Shown piece after piece: positions 30,148 through 36,855 of a DNA stretch of 64,000 nt; the stretch's first letter is position 1, and each line of letters opens with the position of its first letter. The notes beneath the pieces were generated by a model. It was given only the letters and a program-made list of their open reading frames with translations, was not told the DNA's origin and did no database searches. The position numbers and the translations under genes were made by a program. Location of the stretch: sequence record SRR31156797_635; one strand, 5' to 3'.

Positions 30148-32007
30148 ATGGATAAAAATTCGATTTGGGGATTGGTGATCATCGGAGCGATTTTGATTGG
30201 GTATACCTACCTGACAAAACCTTCAGATGAGGAAGTCAAAGCCATGAAAACGAGAGACTCTATTGCCAGCGTTGAGCGTTTGCGTAATGAGACACTTGAA
30301 GCTGCAAGAATTGAAGGATTAAAAAAGCAGTATGAAGAACAAAAATCAGATACTGTAGCACTTAAGAAAGCTTACGGTGCTTTTGCTGGAGCTGTTCAAC
30401 AGAAAGAAGAAGTTATTACTCTTGAGAATAAGTTGGTGAAATTAAGCATCAATACACTTGGTGGTAGAGTTAGTAATGTTGAGCTGAAAGAGTACAAAAC
30501 TCACGATGCCGAGAAGCTAATGCTTTGGGGTGAAAAGAATTCTAAATTCGGGTTGACATTTTATGCGGATAATAAAGCAATGTATTCTCAGGATTTGTTC
30601 TTTACTCCAGTTAATGCAGTAAAAACGGTTGACGCAACTACAGCTAAACAAGTCGTAAGCATGCGTTTGCTAGCAGGTCAGGGGAAATATATTGAGTACC
30701 GATATACTCTGGAGCCAGATTCGTATAAAGTTGGTTTCGATATCAATGTTGTAGGAATGCAAAATGTAATTCAAAGAGATTTAACTTTCAATTGGGCTGC
30801 TGATATTCCTAGTCAGGAAAAAGGTCGTAAGTTCGAAAATCAGTATACTGCTCTTTATTACAAATTCTTGGGTGATGATATCGAGAGTCTATCTGCATCA
30901 GGTGAAGAAGAAGAGAGTGTAAGCACAAAAGTGAAATGGATTGGTTTTAAGCAACAGTTTTTCTCTTCTGTATTAATTGCTGACGATGCGTTTAAAGGTA
31001 TTGTATTTAATACGGTTGATATGGAGGAAACTTCTCCTATTCTGAAGAATTTTTCTGCTGAAATCTCCTTACCATATCAGGGATCTCAATTAGAGAACTA
31101 CCCAATGAATTTCTATTTCGGTCCTAACAAATTCAAAACTTTACGTGAGTATGGTAAAGATTATGATGGTGTGGATATCGAATTGCACAAATTGGTTGAT
31201 TTAGGATGGATGATTTTTGGATGGGTTAACAGATATTTTGTTATTCCAATCTTTAACTTCTTAGAAGGCTTTATTTCGAATTATGGTATCATCATTTTGA
31301 TTTTGACCATTATCATTAAATTGATCTTGGCTCCTTTAACTTACAAGTCGTACATGTCGACTGCGAAGATGAAGGTGTTGAAGCCAGAGATTGATGCGAT
31401 TAACGAAAAGATTCCGAAAGATAAAGCAATGGAGCGCCAGCAGGCAACTATGGCATTGTACAAAAAGGCAGGTGTGAATCCTATGGGTGGATGTTTGCCA
31501 ATGTTGGTACAGTTTCCATTCCTGATTGCATTGTTCCGATTCTTCCCATCTTCTATCGAGCTACGTCAAAAGAGCTTCTTGTGGGCTGAGGATTTATCAT
31601 CATACGATTCAATTGTTGATTTAGGATTTCATATTCCAATGTATGGAGATCACATCAGTTTGTTCTGTTTGTTAATGGCAATTACCAACTTGATTTACAC
31701 TCGTATGAATGGTCAAATGCAATCATCGCAGCAAATGCCTGGTATGCAAACCATGATGTACTTAATGCCGGTAATGTTCCTTTTCTGGTTCAATAGCTAT
31801 GCATCAGGTCTTTCATATTACTACTTTATTGCAACCTTATTTACTGTTGTTCAAACCTGGGCAATCCGTAAGTACTTGGTTGACGATGACAAAGTTTTGG
31901 CTATGTTAGAAGCAAACAAGAAGAAACCAGCTAAAAAGAAATCTAACTTCCAAAAGAGATTAGAGGAAGCTGCGAAGCAAAAAGGTTATAAGCCTCCTAA
32001 AAAATAA
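30148..32007 (+). CDS. yidC: Membrane protein insertase
   Basis: N-terminal TM, periplasmic domain, GVNPMGGCLP and FLWAEDLS. Confidence 0.96.
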   Translation: MDKNSIWGLVIIGAILIGYTYLTKPSDEEVKAMKTRDSIASVERLRNETLEAARIEGLKKQYEEQKSDTVALKKAYGAFAGAVQQKEEVITLENKLVKLSINTLGGRVSNVELKEYKTHDAEKLMLWGEKNSKFGLTFYADNKAMYSQDLFFTPVNAVKTVDATTAKQVVSMRLLAGQGKYIEYRYTLEPDSYKVGFDINVVGMQNVIQRDLTFNWAADIPSQEKGRKFENQYTALYYKFLGDDIESLSASGEEEESVSTKVKWIGFKQQFFSSVLIADDAFKGIVFNTVDMEETSPILKNFSAEISLPYQGSQLENYPMNFYFGPNKFKTLREYGKDYDGVDIELHKLVDLGWMIFGWVNRYFVIPIFNFLEGFISNYGIIILILTIIIKLILAPLTYKSYMSTAKMKVLKPEIDAINEKIPKDKAMERQQATMALYKKAGVNPMGGCLPMLVQFPFLIALFRFFPSSIELRQKSFLWAEDLSSYDSIVDLGFHIPMYGDHISLFCLLMAITNLIYTRMNGQMQSSQQMPGMQTMMYLMPVMFLFWFNSYASGLSYYYFIATLFTVVQTWAIRKYLVDDDKVLAMLEANKKKPAKKKSNFQKRLEEAAKQKGYKPPKK

Positions 32008-32028
32008 GATCAATTAGATTCTATATAT

Positions 32029-32059
32029 AAAGCTCCACATTTTTGTGGGGCTTTTTTTT
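32029..32059 (+). terminator. yidC terminator
   Basis: AAAGCTCCACA-TTTT-TGTGGGGCTTTTTTTT. Confidence 0.85.
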
Positions 32060-32063
32060 GTTT

Positions 32064-32111
32064 ACCTCATCCCCCAGCCCCTTCTCCTCAAGGAGAAGGT
32101 TAGGGTGAGGT
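32064..32111. repeat. REP-like palindromic repeat, copy 1 (short single-hairpin form)
   Basis: ACCTCATCCCCCAGCCCCTTCTCCTCAAGGAGAAGGTTAGGGTGAGGT; contains the DUF559 stop codon. Confidence 0.85.
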
Positions 32112-32489
32112 GATATTCACGATTTTTTCCTTCAATTTACGAACCACCAATTCAGGAGAATGATGGATTTCATCATTTGTAAAGCGGACTACAGAAATAC
32201 CTAAATATCCCAGTTCAGCAGTTCTTCCTTCATCATATTCCTTATTGTCAACCTTATTGTGAATTTCTCCATCAATTTCAACGATTAGTTTTAATTCGTG
32301 ACAGTAAAAATCAGCTATAAAATTACTAATCGGATGTTGTCTTTTGAATTTGAATCCTTTGATTCTTCTATTGCGAACGATTTCCCAGAAAACCATTTCC
32401 GATTCCGTCATTGTTTTACGAAGTTCTTTGGCTCTTTTGTGTATTTCTGGACTTGCATCATAAAAGAGACATTCTTTATAGTCAACCAT
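32100..32489 (-). CDS. DUF559 (Vsr-like, PD-(D/E)xK fold) endonuclease-domain protein
   Basis: AKELRK.MT.SE..FW..VR, FKRQHPI..FIADFYC.E.KL.VEIDG..H, D..RT..L...G..V.RFTN.E. Confidence 0.92.
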   Translation of the reverse strand: MVDYKECLFYDASPEIHKRAKELRKTMTESEMVFWEIVRNRRIKGFKFKRQHPISNFIADFYCHELKLIVEIDGEIHNKVDNKEYDEGRTAELGYLGISVVRFTNDEIHHSPELVVRKLKEKIVNITSP

Positions 32490-32550
32490 AACTGCTGATA
32501 TTTATGATTATGTAATTTATTAATAAAATGTTTTAAGTGCAATTTTACTT

Positions 32551-32652
32551 GCCTTATCTCCCAGCCCCTTCTCCTCGAGAAGAAGGGGAGTATACCACTA
32601 AAGCAAAATTGTTGTGTATTCCCTCTCCTTAAGGAGAGGGGTAGGGTGAGGT
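32551..32652. repeat. REP-like palindromic repeat, copy 2 (full double-hairpin form)
   Basis: GCCTTATCTCCCAGCCCCTTCTCCTCGAGAAGAAGGGGAG-spacer-TTCCCTCTCCTTAAGGAGAGGGGTAGGGTGAGGT. Confidence 0.85.
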
Positions 32653-32744
32653 ATATTTAGGAGGATGTGCGATAAAAAACTCAACTAATCACTATCTTGT
32701 ATCTACTTTTTAAAGCTATTTTATCAACTCATATTCTTTAAAAA

Positions 32745-33875
32745 ATGGACCCAAAATTAATTGCATTGCGTCACCAATTACATTCCCAACCCGAAATTTC
32801 GAATAAGGAATACAATACAGCTCAAACTATTGAGGATTTTATGAAGGATTACAATCCCGATGAGGTGATGGAATTGGGAGAGACAGGTAGAGCATTTGTA
32901 TTTAATGGAGCAGAGGAGGGCAAAACAACGGTATTTCGTGCCGAGTTGGATGCTTTGCCAATAAGCGAGAAATCGAAGGTGAAGTACAGCTCTATTAATC
33001 CAGGAGTGGCTCATGCATGTGGTCATGATGGACACATGGCAATATTAGCTGGTTTGGCACAAAAAATTGCAAATCATCCACCGCAAAAAGGAAGAGTAGT
33101 ACTTCTTTTTCAACCAGCCGAAGAGGTAGAGCAAGGAGCAAGAGATGTGCTAAACCACCCTGATTTTACAGCCTTACGAGCCGACTATCTATTTGCACTA
33201 CATAATGTGCCGGGAGAGGAAGCGAATACAATCCTATTACGACGAGGAAGCTTTTCAGCAGCATCGAAAGGGATGACCATTCAGCTAAAGGGAAAGACCT
33301 CACATGCAGCCGAGCCCGAAAATGGCACAAATCCCGCAATCGCCATATCAAAAATTAGCCGTGAGCTAAATGATTTGCTGAATAACAAGAAGCTATTCAA
33401 GGATCTAAGCTTGCTTACTTTTATATACATTCGTATGGGTGAGGTATCTTTCGGAACATCGGCAGGAAGTGGCGAGATGGGACTTACACTTCGTGCATTC
33501 GAGAATAGTGACATGCAGTTACTAACCACGAAATCCAAGGAAATCATACAACGAATAGCTAATGAAGAAGGACTGGAATGTAGCATAAACTATCACGAAG
33601 AATTTCCGGCAATAGTAAATAACAATACTTGTGTAGACATGATACAGACCATAGCCCAAAAGAACAGTTTGGACTACAAATATCTAGACAAACCTTTTAA
33701 ATGGTCTGAGGATTTTGCTTATTTTTCGGAGAAATATTCAACAGGATACTTTGGTTTGGGAGCAGGATTCGATCAGCCTGCCCTCCATCATCCCGATTAC
33801 GATTTTCCGGATGAGATAATCGAAACAGGACTAAGCATTTTTACCAGTCTCTATCAAAAAATAAATGGTAAATAA
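32745..33875 (+). CDS. M20D family amidohydrolase
   Basis: LH.QPE.S..E, RAELDALP, HACGHDGH, FQPAEE, SEDF and LHHP.YDF. Confidence 0.92.
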   Translation: MDPKLIALRHQLHSQPEISNKEYNTAQTIEDFMKDYNPDEVMELGETGRAFVFNGAEEGKTTVFRAELDALPISEKSKVKYSSINPGVAHACGHDGHMAILAGLAQKIANHPPQKGRVVLLFQPAEEVEQGARDVLNHPDFTALRADYLFALHNVPGEEANTILLRRGSFSAASKGMTIQLKGKTSHAAEPENGTNPAIAISKISRELNDLLNNKKLFKDLSLLTFIYIRMGEVSFGTSAGSGEMGLTLRAFENSDMQLLTTKSKEIIQRIANEEGLECSINYHEEFPAIVNNNTCVDMIQTIAQKNSLDYKYLDKPFKWSEDFAYFSEKYSTGYFGLGAGFDQPALHHPDYDFPDEIIETGLSIFTSLYQKINGK

Positions 33876-36754: not shown

Positions 36755-36855
36755 TCCTCAACCCCAGCCCCTTCTCCTCGAGGAGAAGAGGAGAATTCTA
36801 CAAAACTTTTGCAGTTTCAGTTCCCTCTCCTTTGAGGAGAAGGCTAGGGCGAGGT
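36755..36855. repeat. REP-like palindromic repeat, copy 3 (full double-hairpin form)
   Basis: TCCTCAACCCCAGCCCCTTCTCCTCGAGGAGAAGAGGAG-spacer-TTCCCTCTCCTTTGAGGAGAAGGCTAGGGCGAGGT. Confidence 0.85.

Follow-up and report, generated by a model that had tools for sequence, protein, structure and literature searches.

Repeats of the BoxC/PIT/TM kind, on record since the early 1990s, are found very widely and are tied to genome instability, and we know of no origin, function or partner protein assigned to them. DUF559 is, also to our knowledge, a family with a nuclease fold that is very common and for which no role has been established. Here we describe a stretch of 64,000 nucleotides (nt) from sequence record SRR31156797_635, analysed over its whole length and referred to below as the window, in which a single gene for a 129-residue DUF559 protein lies between two copies of a GC-rich hairpin repeat, with a third, gene-less copy nearby. 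A preliminary description of this DNA had likened the arrangement to the REP/REPIN-RAYT partnership, in which a conserved and vertically kept gene, under purifying selection, is flanked by dispersed hairpin doublets that outnumber it. Miniature inverted-repeat elements offer a second parallel, as they share their ends with an autonomous parent, and palindromic elements that sit in frame are known in Rickettsia.

Among the known repeats closest to those of the window are the TM-ECO sites, whose consensus according to Holder et al. (2015, PMC4666352) is CCCTCNCCC N3-6 GGGNGAGGG N3 GGGNGAGGG, with TTA or CCG as second loops. Five inverted TM pairs in that study always joined a type A with a type B site. 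Its authors report finding no mobility gene in the neighbourhood of TM sites, and neither 'endonuclease' nor 'ycjD' appears in the main text. We found that DUF559 genes and repeats of this kind are genuinely paired, that the pairing is general and that it far exceeds chance expectation. Neither the repeat class nor the protein family is new, whereas their pairing was not found in print: a search of titles and the opening parts of abstracts, with subscription journals mostly outside its scope, returned no published link between DUF559 and BoxC/PIT/TM repeats.

Structure of the repeats

The 16-mer CCAGCCCCTTCTCCTC occurs three times in the window (at 32074, 32561 and 36764, always on the plus strand) with 0.20 occurrences expected, and none of 100 shuffled sequences reached three. 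The motif TAGGGYGAGGT terminates the same three copies. These counts, along with the Pfam match reported below, confirm the arrangement originally described, namely a 129-residue DUF559 gene between two copies of one GC-rich repeat, as well as the third copy, which stands without a gene. A full element measures about 100 nt and consists of a C-rich tail with a hairpin, a spacer of approximately 30 nt and a second hairpin with a G-rich tail. Its halves are mutually inverted and of two kinds, one with an NTA second loop joined to one with a GGCT-type second loop. Each half is built from a pyrimidine arm, a purine arm and a purine tail that mirrors the latter, with G opposite G and A or T opposite A; one example reads GGAGAGGG, followed by a short loop and then the tail GGGTGAGG.

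A finder written for this three-part design detected four halves in the 64-kb window, all within the three copies, and none in 10 shuffles; under stricter limits it returned two halves in the window and none in 20 shuffles. Among 287 asymmetric pyrimidine/purine hairpins located near DUF559 genes, 93 obeyed the mirror rule at 8/8 tail positions, compared with six for a direct-copy rule and nine for shuffled arms. The repeat sequences vary widely among DUF559 loci; the design is retained. The TM-ECO consensus has no match in the window, and a similar pattern recovers the published site beside ycjD of Escherichia coli. Because the tail, the TTA-type loop and the two-kind pairing agree with the described class but the exact TM-ECO consensus does not occur, the window repeats are, judged by their design, a variant of the BoxC/PIT/TM intrastrand-triplex class and not TM-ECO proper. 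The membership of the repeat in a known class had been missed in the preliminary description.

Folding was modelled with ViennaRNA, treating the copies as single-stranded DNA and considering hairpins only. The left copy is predicted to form one inner hairpin with paired outer ends (z-score -3.5), the right copy two hairpins (z-score -2.2) and the third copy a structure with paired ends (z-score -3.4). It had been stated that the two full copies keep both hairpins and complementary outer ends. The hairpins do fold and the ends of the third copy do pair, but the outer ends of the right copy are degenerate and stay unpaired in its best fold.

The arms of the window's copies are 71-77% identical to one another, and the spacers of the two full copies show 41% identity. 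The latter value agrees with the earlier view that the spacers are unrelated, as in an element selected for its structure; they are not free-floating sequences, however, since the spacer of the right copy shares 83% and 72% identity with the two spacers of L130, and that of the third copy 66% with the spacer of L131 (both metagenome relatives of the locus, see below), with values of 34-45% in other pairs. By this comparison the spacers form subfamilies common to different organisms, and entire elements have been copied together with their spacers.

Association of DUF559 genes with the repeats

Two sets of loci were analysed. The metagenome set comprised 80 loci encoding relatives of the window protein (41-91% identical), 68 of them with usable flanks; the genome set comprised 36 loci, of which 30 were the best PF04480 matches in 151 genomes of one order and six were further genome loci. 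A repeat shared between the two flanks of the gene, above the 99th percentile of between-locus controls, was present in 39 of the 68 loci (direct in 32, inverted in 16). We then compared the density of triplex-design halves within 250 nt of DUF559 with that at more than 400 nt in the same loci. In the metagenome set 34/80 loci had a half within 250 nt, with densities of 1.00 and 0.08 per kb for proximal and distal sequence, respectively (approximately 13-fold); in the genome set the corresponding figures were 27/36 loci and 1.66 versus 0.12 per kb. Where halves occurred, the commonest arrangement was one inverted half on each side of the gene (14/116 loci), and a full element on both sides, as in the window, was seen in four of the 116.

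PF04480 was found in 59 of the 151 genomes of the order. Thirteen of these genomes are rich in repeats, with 5 to 32 halves of this family by a pattern search that gave few control hits. A DUF559 match was present in 9/13 repeat-rich genomes and in 50/138 others (odds ratio 3.96, p 0.034; genome completeness not reported). In most of the nine, DUF559 is located beside members of the repeat family, and in G350 all five halves lie within 4.5 kb around it. A tblastn search of three DUF559-less genomes found no DUF559 remnants beside the repeats (best E-value 0.03), and none of the 54 open reading frames (ORFs) within 200 nt of the repeats in those three genomes belongs to a nuclease or transposase family that could represent an alternative partner.

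Insertions in host genes

In several genomes of relatives, units made of a half, DUF559 and another half are inserted in frame within long genes, namely those of class I tRNA synthetases for at least three amino acids, of PRAI and of two methylases, one HsdM-type and one N6_N4 (loci in Table 1). The in-frame halves are translated as short linkers rich in Pro, Ser, Gly and Glu. In one LeuS the insert amounts to 146 residues and is missing in 5/5 LeuS of other genomes; the comparator genes match query residues 17-312 and 459-939 with 6-15 nt between the two pieces. The boundaries of the insert and the outer ends of the halves coincide to within a few residues, indicating that the halves are the ends of the inserted DNA and DUF559 its only gene. 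In the DUF559 tree the in-frame cassettes group in a single clade whatever their host gene, the pattern to be expected had one lineage moved between sites.

At G306:C23:8857-9153 (L226), a truncated DUF559 (profile positions 48-107; frame of 90 residues) lies between inverted halves 278 nt apart, and this locus appears transitional between cassettes and elements without a gene. Together with the full element, which has the same ends around a 30-nt spacer and no gene, it leads us to read the gene-less elements as probable miniature relatives of the cassette.

The DUF559 protein

The ORF in the window matches PF04480 (DUF559) over residues 16-122 with 117 bits (cut-off 20.6; E 4.6e-34), and the solved DUF559 protein 3hrl by sequence with an E-value of 7.7e-18. 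It retains 26/26 of the positions that are conserved in at least 85% of 112 homologues, among them the putatively catalytic D60, E71, D73, H77, D86 and R89, and with them the conserved acidic and histidine positions of the family; an alignment of 31 sequences contains 17 invariant columns. An AlphaFold model based on the same number of sequences has a predicted local distance difference test (pLDDT) score of 83.7. Foldseek placed 3hrl first (E 3.5e-8; template modelling score 0.92 on target), followed by 3r3p, the catalytic domain of the group I intron homing endonuclease I-Bth0305I (0.79 on target, approximately 21% identity), with the Vsr structures 1cw0 and 1vsr at ranks 20 and 31. The Pfam and fold matches support the original assignment to a Vsr-like PD-(D/E)xK fold for the modelled protein, and Vsr, DUF559 and I-Bth0305I have been grouped in clade 58 of the PD-(D/E)xK enzymes (Steczkiewicz et al. 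2012, PMC3424549). The ratio of non-synonymous to synonymous substitution rates (dN/dS) is 0.081 against L130 (dS 0.55) and 0.109 against L131; on these ratios the window gene is under purifying selection and is a working gene long kept at one site. The Caulobacter DUF559 protein VsrA was reported to cause an SOS response when a cytosine methylase is missing (2026, PMC12907096), which suggests that at least one member of the family is an active nuclease in cells.

The VsrA result and the strong purifying selection at a fixed site in three relatives would also agree with a different role, in which a nuclease serving host repair or defence (by nicking in the manner of Vsr at mismatches or in a methylation-linked way) lies next to repeats that act on transcription or mRNA stability. 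REP sequences can act at either of these levels, and the left copy in the window abuts a terminator shared with yidC. Against this explanation, no methyltransferase gene adjoins the window DUF559, whose neighbours encode YidC (PF02096/PF14849) and an M20 peptidase; the sole PADLOC match in the window is weak (E 5.8e-4); promoter-like sites in the window are not above chance (four, 2.5 expected); and a search of the whole window with Rfam at gathering scores found no family, hence no group I or II intron. As the cassette insertions in relatives would also be left unexplained, we consider a host-repair function with regulatory repeats very improbable.

The locus and its relatives

The features of the window locus are compiled in Table 1. 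DUF559 is single in the window, since tblastn with 112 DUF559 proteins gave matches in only one 500-nt bin, and as the sole gene between the flanking repeats it leaves no place there for a HUH Y1 (RAYT) transposase as the partner. The edge of the right copy lies 63 nt upstream of the start codon. The last codons and the stop (ITSP*) fall within the left copy, as was initially noted; the TAA stop is the TTA of the repeat's second loop on the opposite strand, and the ending is native, L130 having the same ITSP and stop. The third element is situated between a 124-residue ORF with no Pfam match and a malic-enzyme gene, and its spacer belongs to another subfamily.

Table 1. Positions of the features in the window, and loci with in-frame cassettes in other genes
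Feature	Position or locus	Strand	Remarks
Terminator-like (intrinsic) hairpin and T run, 3' of the YidC gene	32029..32063	+	11-pair stem, then T run; abuts left repeat copy
Left repeat copy, one hairpin with C-rich 5' tail and G-rich 3' tail	32064..32112	.	triplex-motif half on both strands: 32066-32099 minus, 32080-32110 plus
DUF559 gene, 129 residues, predicted Vsr-like PD-(D/E)xK fold, intact, conserved	32100..32489	-	Pfam, structure matches, dN/dS
Right repeat copy, full element	32553..32652	.	degenerate C-tail and hairpin 1, 32553-32590; spacer of about 30 nt, 32591-32620; hairpin 2 and G-tail, 32621-32652, being a triplex-motif half
Third full element, gene-less, same orientation as the other copies	36755..36855	.	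minus-strand half 36756-36788 fits the triplex design; plus-strand half degenerate
DUF559 and halves read through in frame in host genes	L229, L240, L248, L223, L245, L251, L238, L228, L237, L134, L139, L231		

No close relative was found among 301 genomes sampled from one phylum, the nearest having a YidC merely 51% identical to that of the window. A scan of genome contigs with the 16-mer gave at least 120 loci, which their organism names led us to regard as chance matches; among the 80 listed there was no relative of the window. DUF559 occupies the same site after yidC in two metagenome relatives, L130 and L131. Nucleotide identities of L130 to the window are 96% in yidC, 86.5% across the gene and its repeats and 85.6% in the M20 gene; for L131 they are 79% in yidC and 73% across the gene and repeats, the M20 gene lying outside the locus sequence. 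Over window positions 30239-33785 the divergence from L130 is uneven (96% identity in yidC, approximately 86% in the DUF559 region and the M20 gene), which may point to a breakpoint of recombination located in the repeat or close to it.

In L130 the gene has a full element on either side, and the window lacks 126 nt that L130 has between the gene end and the distal hairpin. A contig of run X2, 97% identical, has a full two-hairpin left element with 37 nt between the hairpins. Given these two full left elements, the short left copy of the window is the product of a recent deletion or collapse and not an original short unit. The flanking elements of L131 have the same spacer as one another, of the subfamily of the window's third copy; the repeats around the orthologous gene have thus undergone replacement or conversion. 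The place of the third element is occupied by a copy in contigs of runs X2, X5 and X15 as well. Long 'joints' seen in contigs at the locus were considered as evidence for an empty site and rejected, as they are explained by one repeat copy mapping onto another. On this comparison the locus is old and vertically inherited, and its flanking repeats decay by deletion between repeated motifs.

The segment of L130 that corresponds to window positions 32653-32744 (L130:1193-1800), between the M20 peptidase gene and the upstream element, holds approximately 2.5 tandem copies of a 288-nt unit. Each unit has its own GC-rich hairpin and an ORF of 88 residues, and nothing comparable exists in the window.

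ycjD of Escherichia coli K-12

The sole annotated DUF559 gene of E. coli K-12 is ycjD (1351407-1351760), between fabI and sapF (region L285:3541-4330). It is located 167 nt from TM-ECO number 9 (1351204-1351239), one of the 23 sites in Table 1 of Holder et al.; with 23 sites in 4.6 Mb, we estimate the chance of such proximity at approximately 0.004. A partial second copy of the ycjD 3' end lies between TM-ECO number 9 and ycjD. Upstream of ycjD a perfect hairpin occurs, with outer letters (CACCTCA...TGAGGTG) similar to the tails of the window repeats. Of 5426 complete E. coli genomes, megablast finds ycjD in 3378, never in more than two copies, and not in the other 2048. A clean excision or empty site at ycjD was considered and rejected, for the strains without ycjD have other genes at this place (efflux genes in one strain).

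That other genes can occupy the place of ycjD would fit a view in which repeat and nuclease have no functional link, triplex repeats being hot spots of rearrangement and foreign-DNA insertion where small accessory genes such as DUF559 accumulate. More rearrangement at TM than at control loci was reported by Holder et al. (2015, PMC4666352), and the window locus itself differs among close relatives by the 126-nt deletion, the hairpin-to-hairpin collapse and the 288-nt tandem repeat. What such hot spots leave unexplained is the fixed half-gene-half geometry, in frame in essential genes, and the single cassette clade spread over different host genes; moreover, DUF559 recurs at the repeats, yet the repeat-adjacent ORFs of the DUF559-less genomes yielded no nuclease or transposase family. 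We therefore give little credence to mere accumulation at hot spots.

Proposed function and alternatives

We propose, with moderate confidence, that DUF559 recognises and nicks or cuts the ends of the repeats, that host repair spreads the elements, and that the window locus is an old, vertically inherited member of this widespread pairing. Two inverted halves with a short spacer constitute the element of approximately 100 nt seen in the window, and two inverted halves with a DUF559 gene the insertion cassette of approximately 440 bp found in relatives. The gene-less elements would be the miniature, non-autonomous relatives of the cassette, in which DUF559 is the only protein encoded, and would use DUF559 in trans. 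Recognition of the repeat end by the nuclease would depend on the sequence of that end or on its folded shape, a hairpin plus third-strand tail, and would be followed by a nick or cut at that place. Repair and replication by the host would next copy or relocate the element, in a manner known from homing and from REP-RAYT systems. In lineages like that of the window, the gene would persist at a fixed site under selection, much as RAYT genes do. What the data establish are the association, the insertion of cassettes in relatives, the design of the repeats and their instability, and the conservation of the gene under selection; the enzymatic step on the repeats and the route of spread are what we infer.

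Several observations weigh against this proposal. Halves are frequent near DUF559 in both sets, but 55 of the 116 loci have no half detectable by the finder, though many of them have other flank repeats. Likewise, repeat-rich genomes have a DUF559 match more often than the others do, in line with the anticipated co-variation, but four of the 13 repeat-rich genomes (G320, G342, G403 and G418, with 16, 11, 20 and 6 halves; completeness not reported) have no DUF559 match. G306 has 31 halves and two damaged DUF559 copies, and G368 has 12 halves and a DUF559 fragment of 44 residues. G342 moreover contains a repeat that is dispersed over L255, L258, L270, L273 and L282, measures at least 166 nt, shows 92-96% identity among loci and has a triplex-design half at its end. 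It appears that the repeats can persist, and may have multiplied, without a resident DUF559, which would fit orphaned miniature elements but weakens a strict RAYT-like dependence. No joint skipping the gene or an element was found at the window locus in contigs of four runs, although this is weak evidence as contigs drop rare variants, and there is no sign of recent movement there, judging from arms that are 71-77% identical and from the presence of the third copy in relatives. Finally, the simple cassette model does not explain full elements on both sides of a gene, often with like spacers. These could arise if a circle carrying the gene and one element integrated by element-to-element recombination, or if an element were extruded, cut in a staggered way at either end and then filled in.

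The repeat-rich genomes without DUF559 (4/13) and the excess of gene-less halves over DUF559 copies (31 versus two in G306, 20 versus none in G403) could also mean that DUF559 is a homing-type selfish nuclease that landed in or beside pre-existing triplex repeats, which would be its target and not its cargo, with no role in the spread of the gene-less repeats. The nearest characterised fold to that predicted for the window protein, a homing endonuclease, points the same way, as does the L131 ortholog, whose spacer subfamily differs from that around the gene in the window and L130 and indicates that repeats can change around a resident gene. In LeuS, on the other hand, the halves arrived with the gene, the five other LeuS having neither halves nor gene at the site (though a two-step insertion, repeat and then gene, could give the same picture). 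Simple landing also does not predict that the two elements flanking a gene often have common spacers (long direct flank repeats in 32/68 loci). On balance we think that landing in pre-existing repeats is an unlikely account.

Returning to a nuclease that acts on its own repeats, the suggestion that DUF559 is the cognate enzyme in a REP-like system without a HUH transposase is favoured by the generality of the pairing, the single gene with flanking repeats, the purifying selection and the identity of the halves with cassette ends; what the repeat-rich genomes without DUF559 weaken is strict dependence. More tentatively, and with some doubt on our part, DUF559 may be the missing partner enzyme of the BoxC/PIT/TM repeats, driving the copying of the approximately 440 bp cassette and of the gene-less elements via the folded hairpin-plus-third-strand end. 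The reproducible pairing provides a concrete hypothesis for both the family and the repeats, testable in a model organism, and if the partner-enzyme reading is true, ycjD of E. coli K-12 would be a ready experimental handle. The cassette would then also represent a new class of bacterial mobile element, able to settle in frame in essential genes; and should the nuclease act on DNA ends folded as triplex or hairpin, this would be a new mode of DNA movement and a possible source of structure-specific DNA tools.

Comparison with known systems

The window repeats agree with BoxC/PIT/TM-ECO in the order of blocks (pyrimidine arm, purine arm, mirror purine tail), in the tail GGGTGAGG, in the TTA-type second loop and in the occurrence of two kinds of half as inverted doublets. 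They are similarly GC-rich and intergenic, with three copies in the 64-kb window and with loci that vary between close strains. They differ in their arms, CCYTCTCC/GGAGARGG in place of CCCTCNCCC/GGGNGAGGG, and for them the triplex is predicted from the sequence design.

I-Bth0305I (3r3p), the second-best fold match, is a selfish nuclease of the same PD-(D/E)xK clade with its gene within its own insertion. The window gene, at approximately 21% identity, is free-standing with no intron or intein, and it is bounded by structured repeats, which occur on their own as well. An empty allele of the homing type is represented by the LeuS cassette, whose insert is absent in 5/5 comparators; none was seen at the window locus in the four runs or at ycjD in E. 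coli.

As in REP/REPIN-RAYT systems, the DUF559 gene of the window is single, flanked by its repeats (also in L130 and L131), kept at a fixed site and under purifying selection. In contrast to RAYT, the protein is a predicted PD-(D/E)xK Vsr-like nuclease and not a HUH transposase, the halves have a mirror tail, the gene-bearing form is also inserted within coding genes, and four of 13 repeat-rich genomes have no match to the nuclease. Compared with miniature inverted-repeat elements, the DUF559 cassettes differ in that no transposase is encoded by them. They are alike, to these and to the palindromic elements of Rickettsia, in that a gene-bearing form and short elements have their inverted ends in common, and in that some copies lie in frame in host genes.

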